In this document: positions 2,393-63,198 of the stretch, piece after piece | Layout: every line of letters starts with the position of its first letter | Position numbering within the stretch: the stretch's first letter is position 1 | Origin: an uncultured virus (IMG/VR IMGVR_UViG_3300024229_000001) | Lineage: Duplodnaviria; Heunggongvirae; Uroviricota; Caudoviricetes | Virus record (IMG/VR): IMGVR_UViG_3300024229_000001 | Direction: 5' to 3' (one strand) | DNA: 64,000 bases | Notes under the pieces: model-generated | Told to the model about the DNA's origin: nothing | The model's database searches: none | What the model saw: the letters and a program-made list of their open reading frames with translations, nothing else | Program-made: the position numbers and the translations under genes

Positions 2393-2703
2393 TGTTAACG
2401 TTGAAGCAACGTGGACACATACTGGACTCGGGGGCGGTACCCGACGACTCCACCATAGATACACTGTCTAAAAAGGAACATTGTTCTGGGCCTGGCCAAC
2501 GAAATCTCCTATTTGAGGTTGGCAGTGTATCTTTGATGGGGTCGAAATAGGATCGACAGGTGTGAAAATGGAAGTGGAGTTAACCGGATGATCGCGTATA
2601 GATCAAAAACCATAACTGCAAACAATAACTTTGCACCTTCAGAAATCGCTCTAGCAGCATAATCTGACGGGTTGGCAACTTACCTTGGAACAGAAAAGTT
2701 GCA
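2393..2703 (+). ncRNA. ssrA: Circularly permuted (two-piece) tmRNA, alphaproteobacterial type
   Basis: T-arm TCGGG-GGCGGTA-CCCGA and CGACTCC-A-CCA (ends 2455) lie upstream of GGGGTCGAAATAGGATCGAC (starts 2538); 7-bp acceptor stem with G3:U70; tag frame 2618-2662 = ANNNFAPSEIALAA*; outer boundaries approximate. Confidence 0.93.
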
Positions 2704-2715
2704 ATTATTTTCAAA

Positions 2716-2761
2716 AAAATGCATTTTACCTATGTACATCCTCTGAGACTTATGGTATAGT
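2716..2761 (+). promoter_or_regulatory. Early promoter with palindrome
   Basis: AAAATGCATTTT (2716-2727), TGTACA (2733-2738), 17 bp, TGG-TATAGT (2756-2761). Confidence 0.8.
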
Positions 2762-2765
2762 AGTA

Positions 2766-2793
2766 CTATAATCAATGAGGAGAAACGATTATG
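2766..2793 (+). repeat. 28-bp leader repeat, copy 1
   Basis: CTATAATCAATGAGGAGAAACGATTATG, identical to 5041-5068. Confidence 0.95.
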
Positions 2794-3171
2794 ACTTACA
2801 CATTCGACGAGAACATTGTATCTGATCTTCACAAAGAAGCTTATGGCTTTCGTCCTCGTGAAGGATGGTGGAATATGTGGGCAGCTTTTAACGCTGATCA
2901 GAAGCAAGCTACATGGGATAGCTTAATTGCTGACTTGGACGATGCTATTGAGCAGCAAGAACAGCAAGAAGCTCAAGCTCTTGTTAACTTTCGTAAATTG
3001 CTTAAGACCACTATGGCTACATGTAACGTAGATTGGAAAAATGCTCTTCGCATCTTAATGGAAGCTGACACTGAGTTTACTAAAGATAGTCAAGAGTTTG
3101 ATTATTTTCTGTGGACCTACGACTTAGGCTACGAAAAGCGCAAAGAGATCTATGCCAAATTCGTGGGGTAG
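2791..3171 (+). CDS. Hypothetical early protein
   Basis: Strong RBS, behind an early promoter; SDLHKEAYGFRPR motif seen in phage early proteins. Confidence 0.8.
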   Translation: MTYTFDENIVSDLHKEAYGFRPREGWWNMWAAFNADQKQATWDSLIADLDDAIEQQEQQEAQALVNFRKLLKTTMATCNVDWKNALRILMEADTEFTKDSQEFDYFLWTYDLGYEKRKEIYAKFVG

Positions 3172-3451
3172 TCCTATAGAGATAGAGCGTAGGCGCAGAA
3201 TAAAAGTAAGTATTGCTGCCTACGCTTATGAGTTTCTCGCAGATTCAATCATGGAAGATCATGAGTTCGATCAATTATGTTTAGAAATCGATACTCAAAT
3301 AAATACAGGTAATAGAAAACTAGATACATTTTTCAAAAAAGAGTTTAATTCTGCAACAGGCTATTGGGTACATCAACATCCCGAAAAAGAAAAGCTGAAA
3401 GATCTGTATGAAAGGTACTACAAAAATGATTCAACTTCATGGATTGAATAA
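3152..3451 (+). CDS. Stand-alone NAD-dependent DNA ligase domain Ia-like protein
   Basis: AAYAYE...IMEDHEFDQL resembles the LigA Ia motif YY...isD.eYD.L. Confidence 0.6.
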   Translation: MPNSWGSPIEIERRRRIKVSIAAYAYEFLADSIMEDHEFDQLCLEIDTQINTGNRKLDTFFKKEFNSATGYWVHQHPEKEKLKDLYERYYKNDSTSWIE

Positions 3452-3668
3452 AGATCAAAGAGAAATTGCTAATATGCTCTGTGATTGCAATTCACTAGAA
3501 GAAGTTCAATTTTTGATGAAGTACCTGTTAACTGATAACGACCGTAGAACTGCATGCACGATTTTAGAGATTATTGAACAAGAGATGGCTGAAGAAGATA
3601 TTGCTACTGAAAATCTAGTAAGAATCCAGCGTCATGTCACAGAGCTATTCATGAGGTGTAGACCATGA
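3426..3668 (+). CDS. Hypothetical protein
   Basis: ORF in tightly packed operon; start uncertain (3408 or 3426). Confidence 0.6.
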   Translation: MIQLHGLNKDQREIANMLCDCNSLEEVQFLMKYLLTDNDRRTACTILEIIEQEMAEEDIATENLVRIQRHVTELFMRCRP

Positions 3669-3937
3669 TTACTGTAGAGATAGATCCAGAAGAAACATGT
3701 ATTACTATTTTGGATAATACCGCTGAGCTCGAAGATGTATCAGCAATTCTATATGATAACTATTGTCATATTCGCCAGTGGAATGAGAAGAATAAAAAGT
3801 TTGATGTAGTTACTCTGACTCCAGAAATGTATATCAAACTCATGAAATCTTTTACTCTTCCACATGGAGCATATGATATTGTATTAAGTGAGAGAGATGT
3901 AGTTAACGACGATATATACGGTATAGAACAGGATTAG
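3665..3937 (+). CDS. Hypothetical protein
   Basis: ATGA overlap with the upstream ORF. Confidence 0.65.
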   Translation: MITVEIDPEETCITILDNTAELEDVSAILYDNYCHIRQWNEKNKKFDVVTLTPEMYIKLMKSFTLPHGAYDIVLSERDVVNDDIYGIEQD

Positions 3938-3941
3938 ACTT

Positions 3942-4070
3942 ATGGTTAATAAAGAAATTCGCGAATTTGATGAAGAAGAACGTCAAAGGGCGAAAGAAAA
4001 AGAAAAAGATAATAAATCTGAAGAACCACCTGAATGGCCAGATAATCCTGTTGATGGACATGCCATATAA
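3942..4070 (+). CDS. Small charged hypothetical protein (42 aa)
   Basis: Read manually; its stop codon overlaps the late promoter. Confidence 0.4.
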   Translation: MVNKEIREFDEEERQRAKEKEKDNKSEEPPEWPDNPVDGHAI

Positions 4071-4073
4071 ATA
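4066..4073 (+). promoter_or_regulatory. T4-type late promoter (tRNA/ncRNA)
   Basis: TATAAATA ending 10 nt before tRNA-Asn. Confidence 0.75.
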
Positions 4074-4082
4074 AAGTTATAT

Positions 4083-4157
4083 TCCGGCGTAGCTCAGTGG
4101 TAGAGCAGTTGACTGTTAATCAATTTGTCGTAGGTTCGACCCCTACCGCCGGAGCCA
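4083..4157 (+). tRNA. trnN: tRNA-Asn (GTT)
   Basis: Cloverleaf: TCCGGCG/CGCCGGA acceptor, GTT anticodon, GGTTCGAC T-loop, encoded CCA. Confidence 0.97.
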
Positions 4158-4192
4158 AAGTTTTAAAGTTTCAACCCGACGGGGTTTGGAAA

Positions 4193-4368
4193 GATAGTGC
4201 AAGGAAATGCAGTTTGTAAGGACTGTAACTTGGCTAGTAGCTGTAGTGGCAGCGTATGAGCATGGAGACATGAAGATACGTATTTCGAACGTAACTGTTT
4301 GATACTAGGCGCAACCGAACGTAGAGTACTTACTAGGTTGTTGGAGGTAAACTGTAATCCTCCCTATC
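4193..4368 (+). ncRNA. Putative multi-stem ncRNA with tRNA-like topology
   Basis: Five-way junction of nested helices closed by GATAG/CTATC; no credible ORF. Confidence 0.55.
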
Positions 4369-4384
4369 ACATTAGACCACGTAT

Positions 4385-4873
4385 CTATTCTATTATGTAT
4401 CTTCTGATACCTAATGCTTTACTGGCAGGAAAATATTCTGCGGTTACTGAGTCATCTTGGTTTCCACCTATAATTAAGTAGTGCTCTTCACCGTCTATAA
4501 TATAAGACATTAAGTAAAAGCCTACATGACCCTGCCAACTAGAATTCCCTCTTGGGAATACCACAATATCCCCTAATCCTGGTTCATTCACTGTTTCTCC
4601 CCATTGTAAGAATGATCTAGCGGTTAGGGGATATTGGCTCACTGAGTCAGATCCTGGTATATCGTTTGCATGAAGTACTGCATTCACAAAAGCAGCGCAC
4701 CATTCAATCCTTGCTGGATCTACACCAAGGAATTCTCTAAGCTCAGGATTATCACGTACTTCATGTTTACCCATTAGTTGAGCTGCGTCATAAACATGGC
4801 TTTCCTCAGGGACCGCGTAAGTGGCGCATCCAGAAACAAATAGGACTAAGGCGGGAATATGTATATATCTCAT
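4385..4873 (-). CDS. TIGR02594-like NlpC/P60 (CHAP-like) cell-wall hydrolase, predicted lipoprotein
   Basis: WCAAFVN, ARSFLQWG, GDIVVF, GHVGF and GGNQ motifs; lipobox LVLFVSG-C after ATG 4873; late promoter TATAAATA at 4882-4889 (-). Confidence 0.85.
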   Translation of the reverse strand: MRYIHIPALVLFVSGCATYAVPEESHVYDAAQLMGKHEVRDNPELREFLGVDPARIEWCAAFVNAVLHANDIPGSDSVSQYPLTARSFLQWGETVNEPGLGDIVVFPRGNSSWQGHVGFYLMSYIIDGEEHYLIIGGNQDDSVTAEYFPASKALGIRRYIIE

Positions 4874-4920
4874 GTCAGCACTATTTATAAAAAAATACAA
4901 TTTGATACAAATTAATTTTT

Positions 4921-4975
4921 CCTTTAGAATCAATAGGTTACGTTTCTCCTCATCCTAAGCCATTGATTCTAAAGG
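4921..4975. repeat. 20-bp inverted repeat with 15-nt loop
   Basis: CCTTTAGAATCAATAGGTTA ... TAAGCCATTGATTCTAAAGG (18/20 complementary). Confidence 0.9.
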
Positions 4976-4991
4976 GTTTTTTATTTTAAAA

Positions 4992-5036
4992 TAAATGCAT
5001 TTTTTTGTGTACATCCTCAGAGAACGGTGGTATAAT
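4992..5036 (+). promoter_or_regulatory. Early promoter with palindrome
   Basis: AAATGCATTT (4993-5002), TGTACA (5008-5013), 17 bp, TGG-TATAAT (5031-5036). Confidence 0.85.
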
Positions 5037-5040
5037 ATAC

Positions 5041-5068
5041 CTATAATCAATGAGGAGAAACGATTATG
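5041..5068 (+). repeat. 28-bp leader repeat, copy 2
   Basis: Identical to 2766-2793. Confidence 0.95.
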
Positions 5069-5347
5069 TTGACTAAATCTGAACTGAACCGCATGGCAAC
5101 TCTGATGGCTAAAATGGAAGGTAATGACTTTTCAACTGTAGCTTCTATGTTTAAGCAAGCTCAAGGCCTTCGCCAAAAGATTGCTGCTGGAGTATTCAAG
5201 GTTGGTGACACTGTCAAGTTTGAGGCCAAAGGTCGGACACGCGAAGCAGTGGTTACTAAAGTAAATCGTAAGACAATTGCTGTTAAAGAGAACAAAGGTC
5301 TAGGCTTTGCTTGGAAAGTTTCTCCAAGTCTTTTGAAAAAAGTTTGA
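5066..5347 (+). CDS. Small basic early protein, SH3/KOW-like barrel
   Basis: FKVGDTVKF...VVTKVNRKTIAV...WKVSPSLL pattern; strong RBS. Confidence 0.75.
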   Translation: MLTKSELNRMATLMAKMEGNDFSTVASMFKQAQGLRQKIAAGVFKVGDTVKFEAKGRTREAVVTKVNRKTIAVKENKGLGFAWKVSPSLLKKV

Positions 5348-5349
5348 AA

Positions 5350-5395
5350 AAAATGCACTTTAGGGGTTTACATTCCTAGAGACTTATGGTAGAAT
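5350..5395 (+). promoter_or_regulatory. Early promoter with palindrome
   Basis: AAAATGCACTTT (5350-5361), TTTACA (5367-5372), 17 bp, TGG-TAGAAT (5390-5395). Confidence 0.8.
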
Positions 5396-5426
5396 ACCTT
5401 ATAAATTGATGATGGAGAAATACAAT

Positions 5427-5897: not shown

Positions 5898-6326
5898 ATG
5901 ACTATGCATCTAGTAAGAGGTATGTCTACACTCTCTACTAAGAAGCGTAGGCAGAAAAAGAAAAATATTGATAACGCTCAAATGGAGCGTGATTGGAAAT
6001 CTTACAATAAAGATATGCGACGTAACAATTTACACTCTTGTCAGTTTAATACTTTACAAGAGTATGTTGATTATCGCATGGGCAAGGCAAAACCAAAACC
6101 AAAGGAGTTTGTACCTTATGAACCGAAAGAATCCAAACCAACTCGCTCGCCAACGAATTATCCAAGCCTCTCGACGGAAAGCATACCTGGATCAGGAGCG
6201 AAAAAAGAGTCTCCAGTCTACTCAGGAGACTACATTATCGGAATCGCGACAATGCACAAGTCAAACATCGTCCCTGTCGGAAGGGGAGATGATCCGAAAC
6301 ATTATGCGGCCATGAGGAGAAATTAA
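5898..6326 (+). CDS. Conserved T4-like hypothetical protein (GIATMHKSN motif)
   Basis: GGAG RBS; basic protein with C-terminal YSG..IIGIATMHKSNIVPV. Confidence 0.75.
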   Translation: MTMHLVRGMSTLSTKKRRQKKKNIDNAQMERDWKSYNKDMRRNNLHSCQFNTLQEYVDYRMGKAKPKPKEFVPYEPKESKPTRSPTNYPSLSTESIPGSGAKKESPVYSGDYIIGIATMHKSNIVPVGRGDDPKHYAAMRRN

Positions 6327-59321: not shown

Positions 59322-60626
59322 ATGTTTAATGCAGAAAATGCATCTCAAAAATGGCAGCCAATCCTCGAGAGCGCTGCGATTCCAGAGATCAAAGACAACT
59401 ACCGTAAGTCCGTAACTGCGGTACTTCTCGAAAACCAAGAAAAAGCAATGCACGAAGAGCGCGCTGCTTTCGGCATGGTAAATGAAACAGCTGCTAACGC
59501 AACTGGCGCTGGTATCGATACTTTCGATCCAGTACTCATTTCACTTGTACGTCGTTCTATGCCAAACCTTATGGCTTATGACGTTGCTGGTGTTCAGCCA
59601 ATGTCTGGTCCAACAGGCTTGATCTTCGCAATGAAGAGCCGTTATAGCACAAAAGCTGGTGCAGAAGCTCTCTTCGGTGAAGCAGATACAGCTCACTCCG
59701 GTGCAGGTTCACATGCAGGTGATTCCGATTCATTGGGTTCATATGGTACAGATACTACTCCAGCTGATGACATCGAAGATTCATTTGCAACTGGTACTGG
59801 TATGGCTACTGCAGCAGTTGAAGCACTTGGTAACACAGGTGGCAACTTCGGCGAAATGGCTTTCTCAATCGAGAAAACATCAGTAACTGCAAAATCACGT
59901 GCGCTCAAAGCAGAGTACACAATGGAACTTGCACAAGACTTGAAAGCAATTCACGGTCTTGACGCAGAATCAGAATTGGCAAATATCTTGTCAGCTGAGA
60001 TCCTTGCAGAAATCAACCGCGAAGTAATTCGTACAATCAACGTAAAAGCTAAGCTTGGCGCACAAACATCTAACACTGCTGTAAACGGCGTATTTGATGT
60101 TGACGGTGACTCAGACGGTCGTTGGTCAGTAGAGAAGTTCAAAGGTTTGATCATGCAGATCGAGCGTGAAGCTAACACAATCGCGAAAGAAACACGTCGC
60201 GGTAAAGGTAACTTCATTATCTGTTCCTCAGACGTTGCATCTGCTCTTGCAGCAGCTGGCATGTTGGACTACACACCAGCACTTGCAGCTAACTTGAACG
60301 TAGATGACACAGGCAACACATTTGCTGGTGTTCTTAACGGTCGCACAAAAGTATACATCGATCCATATGCAACACAGGATTATGTAAACGTAGGTTACCG
60401 TGGTACAAACCCATACGATGCAGGTCTTTTCTATGCACCATATGTTCCATTAACAATGGTTCGTGCGGTAGGTGAAGAAGACTTCCAGCCACGTATTGGT
60501 TTCAAAACACGTTACGGCATGGTTGCTAACCCATTCGCGGGTGGCGCAGCTTCTGCTGAAACTGGTACAGATCGTGCAAACCAGTACTACCGTATCTTTG
60601 CTGTTACAAACATCTTAGGCACATAA
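59322..60626 (+). CDS. gp23: Major capsid protein gp23
   Basis: KWQPIL, GVQPMSGPTGLIFAM, SRALKAEYTMELAQDLKAIHGLDAE, FQPRIGFKTRYG. Confidence 0.98.
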   Translation: MFNAENASQKWQPILESAAIPEIKDNYRKSVTAVLLENQEKAMHEERAAFGMVNETAANATGAGIDTFDPVLISLVRRSMPNLMAYDVAGVQPMSGPTGLIFAMKSRYSTKAGAEALFGEADTAHSGAGSHAGDSDSLGSYGTDTTPADDIEDSFATGTGMATAAVEALGNTGGNFGEMAFSIEKTSVTAKSRALKAEYTMELAQDLKAIHGLDAESELANILSAEILAEINREVIRTINVKAKLGAQTSNTAVNGVFDVDGDSDGRWSVEKFKGLIMQIEREANTIAKETRRGKGNFIICSSDVASALAAAGMLDYTPALAANLNVDDTGNTFAGVLNGRTKVYIDPYATQDYVNVGYRGTNPYDAGLFYAPYVPLTMVRAVGEEDFQPRIGFKTRYGMVANPFAGGAASAETGTDRANQYYRIFAVTNILGT

Positions 60627-61255: not shown

Positions 61256-61702
61256 ATGTTAAATCTTGAAGAAATTTTTAAAATGTGGGCCAAGGATTCT
61301 GAGATTGATGATCTTAGACTTGACGAAGCTTCAAAGAAAACTGCATCACTTCACGCAAAATACCTAGAAATGCTTTCTGTATCTAAGCTTCAGCTGAAGC
61401 GTAAAGATATGGAATTTAAAGTGCTGCTTAAAAATAAGTGGTTGTGGTATAATGGCAAGATGCCAAGAGATCAGATTGATGAGCTTGGTTGGGAATATGA
61501 CGCACTCAATGGATTGAAGATTCTGAAAGGTGAAATGGATTACTATTATAATTCAGATCCACATATTCAAGAAATGCAAGCAAAGATTGACTATCTAAAA
61601 ACATTAATTGAGACTCTGGAAGAAATCATAAATAATATTCGTTGGAGACATTCAACTATTAAAAATATGATTGATTGGAGAAGGTTTGAGAGTGGCGGAT
61701 GA
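61256..61702 (+). CDS. uvsY: Recombination mediator UvsY
   Basis: W.KDS.ID, LHAKYL, IKN.I.W..F..G. Confidence 0.9.
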   Translation: MLNLEEIFKMWAKDSEIDDLRLDEASKKTASLHAKYLEMLSVSKLQLKRKDMEFKVLLKNKWLWYNGKMPRDQIDELGWEYDALNGLKILKGEMDYYYNSDPHIQEMQAKIDYLKTLIETLEEIINNIRWRHSTIKNMIDWRRFESGG

Positions 61703-63198
61703 GCGACCTTAAAATACATAATAAAAATCATGCTTTCATACATATTGATTGTGAACCATCTGTTGCTAATGAGCTTTCAGATTTTTTCACGTTCTATGTT
61801 CCTGGTTATAAATTTATGCCAGCATATAAGAATAAAATATGGGATGGTAAAATCCGTTTATACGATGTTCGTAAAAAAGAGCTTCCAGCTGGGCTATACA
61901 AGTACGTAGAAGAATTTGCAAATACACCTGGTCGCGATTACCACATCGCCTTAGAGCATGACAATTATTATGGATTAGCTGGATCTAAGGTTGATGTTGA
62001 TATGTCATTCGTGAAAGATATGACTATTACATCTAGAGGAAAAGAGATTGAACCCCGTGATTATCAATTAAATGCTATTGAGCAAGGGTTAACTAATAAG
62101 CGCAGTTTACTTATTTCGCCAACGGCATCAGGTAAATCACTTATCATTTATTCTCTTATTCGTTGGTATCTTAAAAATTACGATAAGAAAGTAATTATTG
62201 TTGTTCCTACCACTTCACTAGTAGAACAGATGTACAAAGATTTTGGTGACTATTCTGAATTTGACGATGGCTTTGACGTAGAACAACTTTGTCATAAGAT
62301 TTATTCTGGAAGGGAAAAGATTTTTGACCAAAAGATTGTTATCACAACTTGGCAATCTGTGTATAAAATGCCAGGACATTGGTTTGAAGATTATGGTATG
62401 GTTATTGGTGATGAAGCACACACGTTCAAAGCAAAAAGCCTTACCTCTATTCTTTCAAAGTGTAGAGAAGCTGAGTTTAGATTTGGTACTACAGGTACTC
62501 TTGATGGTACTAATACTCATAAACTTGTTCTTGAGGGCTACTTTGGACCTGCGTATTATGTGACTACAACAAAGAGTCTTATGGATGAAGGTTCTTTATC
62601 TACTCTAGATATTTCTGTTCTATTGATGAAGTATTCTGATGCTGAATGTAAGCTTATAAATAAAGTTAAGTACCAAGAAGAAATAAACTTTCTTGTTGGT
62701 CATGAAAAAAGAAATAGCTTTATTTCAAATCTAGCGCTTGATCAAGATGGTAATACATTAGTACTTTTCCAATTAGTGGAAAAACATGGTAAACCATTAT
62801 ACGATATTATTAAGAGTAGAGCTCACCCAAGAAGAAAAATCTTTTTTGTTTCAGGCGCCACTGATGTAGATACAAGAGAGCAAGTCAGATCTATTACTGA
62901 AAAAGAAAAGAATGCTATTATTGTTGCGAGTCTTGGCACTTTTTCTACTGGTATTAATATTCGCAATCTGCATAATATTGTATTTGCATCTCCATCAAAA
63001 TCTCAAATCAAAGTCCTACAATCAATTGGCCGCGGATTGAGAAAATCTGAAGATGGTAGAGATACAAAGCTTTATGATATTGCCGATGATCTACATTGGA
63101 AGAGTAATAAGAACTATACACTCAACCATGCAGCTGAACGAATTAAGATCTACACAAAAGAAAAATTCAAATATAAAATTTATGAGATAACTTTATGA
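61699..63198 (+). CDS. uvsW: DNA helicase UvsW
   Basis: SPTASGKS, DEAH, FSTGINI.NLH, LQSIGRGLR. Confidence 0.96.
   Translation: MSDLKIHNKNHAFIHIDCEPSVANELSDFFTFYVPGYKFMPAYKNKIWDGKIRLYDVRKKELPAGLYKYVEEFANTPGRDYHIALEHDNYYGLAGSKVDVDMSFVKDMTITSRGKEIEPRDYQLNAIEQGLTNKRSLLISPTASGKSLIIYSLIRWYLKNYDKKVIIVVPTTSLVEQMYKDFGDYSEFDDGFDVEQLCHKIYSGREKIFDQKIVITTWQSVYKMPGHWFEDYGMVIGDEAHTFKAKSLTSILSKCREAEFRFGTTGTLDGTNTHKLVLEGYFGPAYYVTTTKSLMDEGSLSTLDISVLLMKYSDAECKLINKVKYQEEINFLVGHEKRNSFISNLALDQDGNTLVLFQLVEKHGKPLYDIIKSRAHPRRKIFFVSGATDVDTREQVRSITEKEKNAIIVASLGTFSTGINIRNLHNIVFASPSKSQIKVLQSIGRGLRKSEDGRDTKLYDIADDLHWKSNKNYTLNHAAERIKIYTKEKFKYKIYEITL

Follow-up and report, generated by a model that had tools for sequence, protein, structure and literature searches.

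The DNA analysed here, called the window, is a stretch of 64,000 nt (IMG/VR record IMGVR_UViG_3300024229_000001) from an uncultured marine T4-like phage that is kin of Methylophilales phage Melnitz and the Pelagibacter myophages. At nt 4921–4975 it carries a hairpin whose loop is antisense to the ribosome binding site of early genes on either side, and this element is the subject of what follows. The left arm (CCTTTAGAATCAATAGGTTA, nt 4921–4940) and the right arm (TAAGCCATTGATTCTAAAGG, nt 4956–4975) pair on the plus strand at 18 of 20 positions, as a first-pass annotation of this DNA had described, and the two mismatches (A·C and G·G) lie close to the loop. The loop (CGTTTCTCCTCATCC, nt 4941–4955) is 15 nt long, and its first 13 nt (nt 4941–4953) are indeed, as claimed there, the perfect reverse complement of ATGAGGAGAAACG, the Shine-Dalgarno region at nt 2775–2787 and 5050–5062. 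When one mismatch is allowed, this 13-mer has three sites in the 64 kb, all of them exact (nt 2775–2787 and 5050–5062 on the plus strand, nt 4941–4953 on the minus strand), against 0.07 expected, and none of 100 shuffled sequences reached three; a chance match between loop and leader was rejected. Folded as plus-strand RNA, the hairpin has an energy of −21.7 kcal/mol (z = −4.99), a stability that none of 200 shuffles equalled. The loop bases are unpaired in 85–100% of the plus-strand ensemble, and the two mismatches leave a weakly paired apical region of about 18–27 nt.

The hairpin closes a conserved early operon and abuts the next early promoter. In the window, the operon begins with early promoter A (copy 1, nt 2733–2761, plus strand; TGTACA, a 17-nt spacer and TATAGT, with TG upstream), found by a consensus scan, and with leader A (copy 1, nt 2768–2793; ATAATC-AATGAGGAGAAAC-GATTAT-G), which holds the 13-mer target at nt 2775–2787 and includes the start codon of gene 2791. 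Next on the same strand come four small early genes that overlap one another (nt 2791–3171, 3152–3451, 3408–3668 and 3665–3937). Just 3′ of the hairpin lies a second cassette of the same kind, made up of an AT-rich region with promoter A copy 2 (nt 4988–5036; TGTACA at 5008–5013, a 17-nt spacer, TATAAT at 5031–5036, TG upstream) and leader A copy 2 (nt 5043–5068), which carries the second target at nt 5050–5062 and the start codon of gene 5066–5347. Related contigs and loci are given below by handle (L or G with a number). In L097, G003 and G004 the hairpin stands directly after the homologue of the operon's last gene (3665–3937), so that it would be transcribed as the 3′ end of these plus-strand genes.

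The operon that ends at the hairpin opens with leader A, placed before the 2791 homologue, in all five lineages checked, namely the window (= L437), L439, L438 (= L097), L440/L441 (= G004) and G003, and promoters homologous to promoter A sit ahead of leader A in the relatives. In the order given, leader A matches the loop at 13/13, 13/13, 12/13, 13/13 and, with a 1-nt deletion, 12/13 positions. The distance from leader A to the hairpin is 1.1–2.1 kb in four lineages and about 0.9 kb in G003, and a regular-expression scan for promoters between the two found none in G003 and G004. Since the operon opens with leader A and ends at the hairpin, what would be a single transcription unit has a leader at its 5′ end that is complementary to the terminator loop at its 3′ end. 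In the other lineages the leader downstream of the hairpin is of a different type (B), which pairs with the loop as 4–5 bp plus 7 bp at −15.7 to −16.7 kcal/mol. As a separate observation, the early leaders of the window (nt 2768–2793 and 5043–5068), L004, L411 and L414 could form a 5′-terminal stem that ends at the ATG and places the Shine-Dalgarno sequence in a loop of about 13 nt. This stem varies between phages in a compensatory way (ATAATC/GATTAT, ATAGTT/AACTAT, ATATTT/AAATAT, ATATT/AATAT) and is thermodynamically weak (−1.7 kcal/mol).

The element is very probably a terminator stem-loop of the type known in T4-like phages as PeSL (promoter-early stem-loop). The published layout is a stem-loop followed by an AT-rich region, a sigma-70-like early promoter, a Shine-Dalgarno sequence and a start codon (PMC4122927; PMC2839356). 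Here, the hairpin ends 32 nt 5′ of the −35 box, nt 4977–5006 are AT-rich (TTTTTTATTTTAAAATAAATGCATTTTTTT), the promoter is TGTACA-17-TATAAT with an upstream TG (nt 5008–5036; others of the same type at 5367, 7427 and 9870), GAGGAG occupies nt 5052–5057 and the ATG is at 5066. At least five different combinations of flanks surround the same hairpin, as would be expected of an element found at indels and gene replacements. Repetition is seen in the relatives, which carry two to four copies of the arm family per contig; the window, which is cut at the early region, holds one. The hairpin also has the layout of an intrinsic terminator for plus-strand transcripts: the stem ends at nt 4975 and is directly followed by GTTTTTTATTTT (nt 4976–4987), a T-tract of the form G, T6 (nt 4977–4982), A, T4. 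This T-tract is kept in all 15 hairpin loci compared. A loop of 15–18 nt and an AT-rich stem are atypical of such terminators, and a consensus terminator scanner did not list the hairpin because its loop limit is 3–8 nt. A bidirectional terminator was considered and rejected, as the minus strand has no T-tract after the hairpin.

Partial complementarity between the loop and other early leaders, also reported in the first pass, is real: matches of 11, 9 and 10 nt occur at nt 6312, 7472 and 7839. Calculated duplex energies are −21.5 kcal/mol for both copies of leader A, −16.7 kcal/mol for the leader before 5427, −17.4 kcal/mol at 6312 and −13.9 kcal/mol before 7486, compared with a median of −6.0 kcal/mol over 68 open reading frame start regions. 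The 14-mers GATGAGGAGAAACG and AATGAGGAGAAACG are common ribosome binding site words in unrelated viral contigs (more than 116 stretches each). A BLASTn search of nt 4000–5400 against phage records returned tRNA matches only.

Conservation of the loop and of its orientation reaches far past the divergence seen in the flanks. Between the window, L097, L414 and L411/L421 the loop is identical at 14–15 of 15 positions; in the same comparisons the homologues of gene 5427 have a third-codon-position identity of 0.48–0.59 and the promoter spacer keeps 5–10 of 15 positions (hand count). The first gene of the operon (2791) shares 62% protein identity with its G004 homologue (third-position identity 0.54) and 43% with that of G003 (0.40). 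In total, the window-type loop is conserved at 14–15 of 15 positions in seven metagenome loci and in the IMG/VR relatives, its sole variable base falls outside the 13-nt complementary block, and the base pair beside the core changes across lineages from G-C to G·T to A-T. In every locus with this loop (the seven metagenome loci, L084, L097, L146 and L153) the anti-leader is on the promoter strand. The loops of other alleles decay alongside their flanks, with third-position and loop identities of 1.00/0.93, 0.91/0.87 and 0.74/0.71, and at third-position identities of 0.60 or below they are unrelated (loop identity 0.40–0.64). When 51 loops of the hairpin family were tested for matches within 1.5 kb, the window-type loop alone was significant (p = 0 in 300 shuffles). 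From this pattern the anti-leader loop may quite possibly be functional and not a passenger, though the chance is put at somewhat below even.

A mechanism can be outlined from the layout of the sequence. The hairpin, judged by its shape, would terminate plus-strand early transcripts, and the 3′-terminal hairpin of the finished operon mRNA would present the 13-nt anti-leader. The anti-leader would then fold back onto the 5′ Shine-Dalgarno leader of that transcript and pair with it or, alternatively, pair with the matching leader just downstream on read-through transcripts, and either pairing would mask the ribosome binding site. Translation of the first cistron would thereby be restricted in time, and neighbouring cassettes would stay insulated. 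The two conserved mismatches, which lie at the top of the stem, would hold the apical region sufficiently open for a helix of 13 bp, easing the steric problem posed by a closed loop. In this manner the loop may shut off translation of its own messenger. Such a built-in translational timer, in which a selected anti-Shine-Dalgarno terminator loop closes the first cistron and insulates the neighbouring early cassettes, is put forward tentatively, as a possible rather than a probable account.

The arms of the hairpin define a wider family. A search of IMG/VR with the pattern AGAATCAAT-NNN-TTA ... TAA-NNN-ATTGATT gave 78 loci, representing 51 distinct hairpins and often several per contig. The first pass had recommended looking for more such hairpins, and in the window there are none: nt 4921–4975 is the sole member of the arm family in 64 kb, and the arm core occurs without mismatch at 4928 and 4956 only. 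An early-type promoter lies within 110 nt on one side only in 31 of the 51 hairpins and on both sides in one; a regular expression found none near the other 19. Typically, a TTGTNACAA-like motif and then a T-rich stretch come before the hairpin, which is followed in turn by an A/T-rich stretch, the −35 and −10 boxes and the leader. In the window, the motif is a small palindrome (AATTTGATACAAATT, nt 4899–4913); palindromes of this type stand 8–20 nt 5′ of most family hairpins and look operator-like, and together with the TAGAAT of the left arm the one in the window can also be read as a promoter-like TTGATA-17-TAGAAT (nt 4902–4930). Among 32 family hairpins the three free arm positions pair in 28, 31 and 28 cases, with double changes at two of these pairs. 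Compensatory change is confined to two pairs (15/41 with 6 double changes, 16/40 with 9), and covariation over the whole structure was no better than in shuffles, in an alignment where the search pattern itself imposes the invariance of the arm core and so fixes most columns; the seven basal pairs are often unpaired. No family member was found in three cultured relatives (Melnitz, Mosig and HTVC008M), a single two-mismatch match in Mosig being equalled by a reversed-pattern control, and the family is also absent from the nearest record (G001, 70.8 kb, 39% complete), which has a one-mismatch word only.

Several members of the family have features of their own. L086, L090 and L140 (around nt 1500–1620) have tandem hairpins, or a hairpin and a half-hairpin, 50–60 nt apart and separated by the direct repeat AATTGTAA(C/T)AAATTGT(A/T)AC, with no open reading frame between them. 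A sister allele with the same mismatched arms (AGG...GCC) and T-tract is present in L410, L413, L415, L416, L418, L419, L422 and L423; its loop, CGGAGGATCACCTC (variants CGGAGGATCGCCTC and CGGGTGATCACCTC), contains words resembling both a Shine-Dalgarno sequence and its complement and is self-complementary. The complete 219.7-kb genome of relative G002 holds four family hairpins. One G002 loop (L399–L409; nt 97627 and 128491) has a 13-nt reverse-complement match in a coding region 31 kb away, which is probably due to chance, as about 0.1 such matches are expected over the four loops.

Between relatives, the hairpin marks a point of insertions, deletions and replacements. In L097 the same hairpin lies directly 3′ of the 3665–3937 homologue and 5′ of the 5427 cassette, without the tRNA, the manA-like RNA, the CHAP-like gene and gene 5066. 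L412 and L420 have different left flanks, and in L411, L414 and L421 the hairpin precedes a diverged 5427 cassette; BLAST homology of L412, L097 and L420 to the window begins at nt 4887–4909. The segment between the inverted arms also flips naturally, leaving arms and flanks unchanged. L125 and L143 agree throughout the 165 nt that precede the loop and the roughly 100 nt that follow it (292 of all 328 flank positions compared match), and their 14-nt loops are exactly inverted; L096 and L130 form a second inverted pair. The first-pass annotation had offered a recombination site or an inverted-duplication scar of the leader as alternatives to an antisense role, and these were in part right: the hairpin belongs to a repeated stem-loop family at recombination breakpoints, and given that loops of this family can flip, an inverted copy of the leader would be an easy product.

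These properties lead to a reading in which the element is the same PeSL-type terminator and recombination joint, with the loop carried along as a neutral passenger. Illegitimate recombination, or template switching, between cassette parts that share AATCAATG would have brought an old leader A copy into the loop; the copy would then have been flipped, and would have been spread or kept by exchange of stem-loops between co-infecting phages. It is in keeping with this that AATCAAT(G) is common to the arms and leader A, a resemblance which the first pass had pointed out correctly, that loops flip between near-identical relatives, and that one hairpin allele can take the place of another while the gene beside it has not diverged (L083 and L097 share 95% third-position identity in the downstream gene yet have different alleles). 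The published description of PeSLs is moreover one of mobile cassettes in which crossovers fall at several internal points (PMC2839356). For the window-type loop, however, the passenger reading needs the hairpin block to have been exchanged alone, by crossovers no more than a few tens of bases away on either side, and this in three or more lineages in which the spacers and both flanking genes have diverged. This allele is also found at one locus only, in one orientation and always in an operon headed by leader A, and the loops of other alleles do decay along with their flanks. A passenger loop is a possibility to be taken seriously, while falling short of probable.

A number of observations weigh against a role of the loop in translation. 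The other 50 of the 51 family loops have no match within 1.5 kb (p ≥ 0.097), as if they were arbitrary allele "barcodes", and the four G002 hairpins show no match to a ribosome binding site, three of their loops having only 9–10-nt matches genome-wide. The first pass had asked whether the loop tracks changes of the ribosome binding site in relatives, and it does not: two leader variants, AAGAGGAGAAACG shared by L097 and L004 and the 1-nt deletion of G003, are uncompensated, with the loop unchanged. L004 keeps its leader A variant beside another allele at the same site (loop CAAATATCCAAAAGA), and in 12 operon homologues that are more distant the leaders differ, and neither a family hairpin nor an anti-leader is present (longest matches 7–9 nt, p ≥ 0.2). 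In the window itself, the operon and the hairpin now lie about 900 nt apart, with a convergent gene in between. L411 and L421 have nearly identical whole cassettes, including the neutral promoter spacer, next to a gene with a third-position identity of 0.59; cassettes are therefore exchanged between phages, which leaves only about three lineages as independent witnesses and is a further point for a passenger, as are the uncompensated leaders and the unmatched loops. With regard to RNA, the A·C mismatch of the plus-strand stem is a G·U pair on the minus strand, the T-tract occurs in 7 of the 32 family hairpins, and G·U and A·C appositions in the stems (21 versus 15 in the same 32) show no strand bias. 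With the T-tract in few members and no such bias, the whole family need not act as RNA.

The last two points are also what would be expected if the element acted as DNA, with the palindrome, perhaps as a cruciform, and the 13-bp word, which occurs in the loop and again shortly downstream of promoter A, serving as binding or cutting sites for a phage recombination or repressor protein, regardless of strand. The arm sequence is conserved across many contigs beyond what pairing needs, synteny breaks at the element, and the PeSL authors speculate on a recombination protein that binds the stem-loop (PMC2839356). The invariance of the arms is, however, partly imposed by the search pattern, no candidate protein was found, and a double-stranded DNA site should tolerate inversion, whereas the window-type loop was never found inverted. 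Action at the DNA level is considered unlikely.

A further explanation, the one originally advanced for this hairpin, is a trans-acting anti-ribosome-binding-site RNA that is made late, by read-through from a late promoter at 4066, and silences a set of early mRNAs. The promoter sequence TATAAATA is present at nt 4066–4073 as stated, the loop can pair with at least four early ribosome binding sites (−13.9 to −21.5 kcal/mol), and that part of the claim which has a plus-strand RNA displaying an unpaired anti-leader stands. Read-through from 4066 is not the likely carrier, because L097, G003 and G004 have the hairpin and leader A without the insert that bears the tRNA and the late promoter. The 64 kb contain only one such hairpin, and it has no conserved promoter of its own with a sensible start, as TTGATA-17-TAGAAT (nt 4902–4930) would start inside the stem. 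A late trans-acting RNA is thought very unlikely, and the carrier is likely to be the 3′ end of the early operon transcribed through leader A from the promoter at 2733.

The region is present in six metatranscriptome runs, and assembled contigs of four of them were mapped; these contigs show neither strand nor ends nor level and carry no weight either way. They cover nt 2534–4880. In three runs the contigs listed stop at nt 4879 (X16), 4869 (X17) and 4607 (X18) and restart at 5063, 5050 and 5107, respectively, and one X15 contig spans nt 4578–4995, ending about 8 nt beyond the T-tract. The bin nt 4910–5083 has the lowest depth of RNA contigs in three of the four runs and the second-lowest in X15.

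The opposite strand offers one more explanation, a minus-strand leader or ribosome binding site (GGATGAGGAGAAACG in the loop) for the adjacent CHAP-like gene or for a small open reading frame from TTG 4933. On that strand the loop is Shine-Dalgarno-like, the stem gains one pair (G·U), and the open reading frame that starts at TTG 4933 shares its frame with the CHAP-like gene. For that gene, however, a separate TATAAATA lies 8 nt 5′ of the ATG and downstream of the hairpin (the same in L002–L004 and similar in many distant relatives), which places the hairpin upstream of that promoter and outside that mRNA, and L097, G003 and G004 have the hairpin without an adjacent minus-strand gene. This explanation is regarded as highly improbable. 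An N-terminal extension of the CHAP-like protein from TTG 4933 was also rejected: L004 has a stop codon in it, and all six changes in L002 are non-synonymous (hand reading).

The block between the operon and the hairpin is specific to the lineage of the window. Its first part (nt 4066–4373, plus strand), missing from L097, consists of TATAAATA (nt 4066–4073) directly 5′ of a tRNA-Asn gene (nt 4083–4157), followed by a manA-like RNA (nt 4169–4373) whose score of 48.4 bits (E = 4.6e-10) falls short of the gathering score, 55.2. The second part (nt 4385–4889, minus strand) is the convergent CHAP-like gene (nt 4385–4873) with its TATAAATA at nt 4889–4882; the product is lipoprotein-like (MRYIHIPALVLFVSGC...) and matches CHAP at 25.9 bits against a cut-off of 26. 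The gene has no Shine-Dalgarno sequence between its T4-late-promoter-like TATAAATA and the ATG, and many of the relatives' genes that were read (L001–L030) have TATAAATA or the close variant ATAAATA 4–8 nt 5′ of the ATG, which suggests that its late mRNA is nearly leaderless. The product of gene 5066–5347, on the other side of the hairpin, gives a weak, sub-threshold ProQ-C-like match.

Elsewhere in the window, the T4-like character of the phage is evident from the major capsid protein gp23 (nt 59322–60626; Pfam E = 7e-145), which is 62–66% identical to that of Melnitz and of the Pelagibacter phages Mosig and HTVC008M, and from UvsW (nt 61699–63198). The source DNA was found in seawater metagenomes. 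Ahead of promoter A copy 1 there is a two-piece (permuted) alpha-type transfer-messenger RNA (tmRNA) on the plus strand (nt 2351–2705; Rfam alpha_tmRNA, 117.9 bits; ARAGORN tag ANNNFAPSEIALAA), and its 3′ stem-loop (GCAACTT...AAGTTGC, about nt 2676–2709) occupies the place where the stem-loop of that cassette would be expected. Phage tmRNAs are known for Melnitz and pelagimyophages (PMC9004378). Metatranscriptome contigs with a depth of up to 2543 join across nt 2457–2537 with 19 other letters, and so originate from a related tmRNA of another organism.

PeSLs as such are already known; descriptions of them exist for coliphage, Yersinia and Vibrio phages, and they are regarded as drivers of the gene shuffling that takes place in plastic regions of T4-like genomes. 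Neither the long-armed marine family nor the anti-leader loop appears in the parts of PMC2839356 and PMC4122927 considered here, and a literature search returned no paper joining PeSLs with pelagimyophages or HTVC008M. The hairpins represent a distinct long-armed version of PeSL in uncultured marine relatives of SAR11 and OM43 myophages, and their allele-specific, flippable loops offer a sequence handle for tracing recombination in viromes. A functional loop would make this a phage case of 5′–3′ mRNA fold-back control placed in a terminator loop, and a mobile regulatory cassette could carry translational as well as transcriptional insulation. If the loop is a passenger, it warns that perfect 13-nt antisense matches can arise and persist without function in a recombining cassette family.

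In kissing antisense control, as in CopA/CopT and RNA I/RNA II, loops of about 6–7 nt meet on separate transcripts made from opposite strands. The hairpin described here resembles these systems in that complementary sequences lie in hairpin loops, leader A having a weak 5′ stem (ATAATC/GATTAT) with the Shine-Dalgarno sequence in a 13-nt loop; it differs in that the leader A stem is marginal, at −1.7 kcal/mol. The published PeSLs are likewise stem-loops just 5′ of an AT-rich region, a sigma-70-like early promoter, a Shine-Dalgarno sequence and a start codon; they are intergenic in the plastic early region, repeated and conserved in sequence, and sit at indels and gene replacements between related phages (PMC2839356, PMC4122927). 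Termination by their stem-loops has been proposed, and for RB49 shown (PMC2839356, PMC4122927). Mini-circles arising by recombination between cassettes count as another trait of the type. The published stems are short and G/C-based (GN-loop-CN, A3-4G3-loop-C3T3-4, AGNA-loop-TCNT), whereas here AT-rich arms of about 20 bp, whose sequence is conserved across many contigs, enclose allele-specific flippable loops of 13–15 nt, and the parts considered of PMC2839356 and PMC4122927 describe no leader-complementary loop.

The closest working analogues of the proposed fold-back are the anti-Shine-Dalgarno sequence in the icaR 3′ untranslated region and the tac/fbi pairing of hok. The icaR mRNA of Staphylococcus aureus has a pyrimidine-rich 3′ sequence complementary to its own 5′ Shine-Dalgarno sequence, and the expected effect is likewise a block of initiation, possibly with a double-stranded target that RNase III can act on (PMC3868564). 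It is a cellular monocistronic mRNA with a long 3′ untranslated region, whereas the putative anti-Shine-Dalgarno sequence described here lies in the terminator loop of a four-gene phage operon. In the tac/fbi pairing of hok (hok/Sok), the 5′ and 3′ ends pair only in the full-length transcript and block translation, so that completion of transcription sets the timer (PMC9841398). The 5′–3′ stem of hok acts indirectly, by stabilising a fold that hides the Shine-Dalgarno sequence, and 3′ processing reactivates the mRNA (PMC9841398); here the 3′ loop would pair with the Shine-Dalgarno sequence itself, and no processing step is known. The timer proposed above, if true, would represent a counterpart, made of RNA only, to T4's protein-based early shut-off (RegA/RegB), carried on a mobile terminator–promoter cassette.

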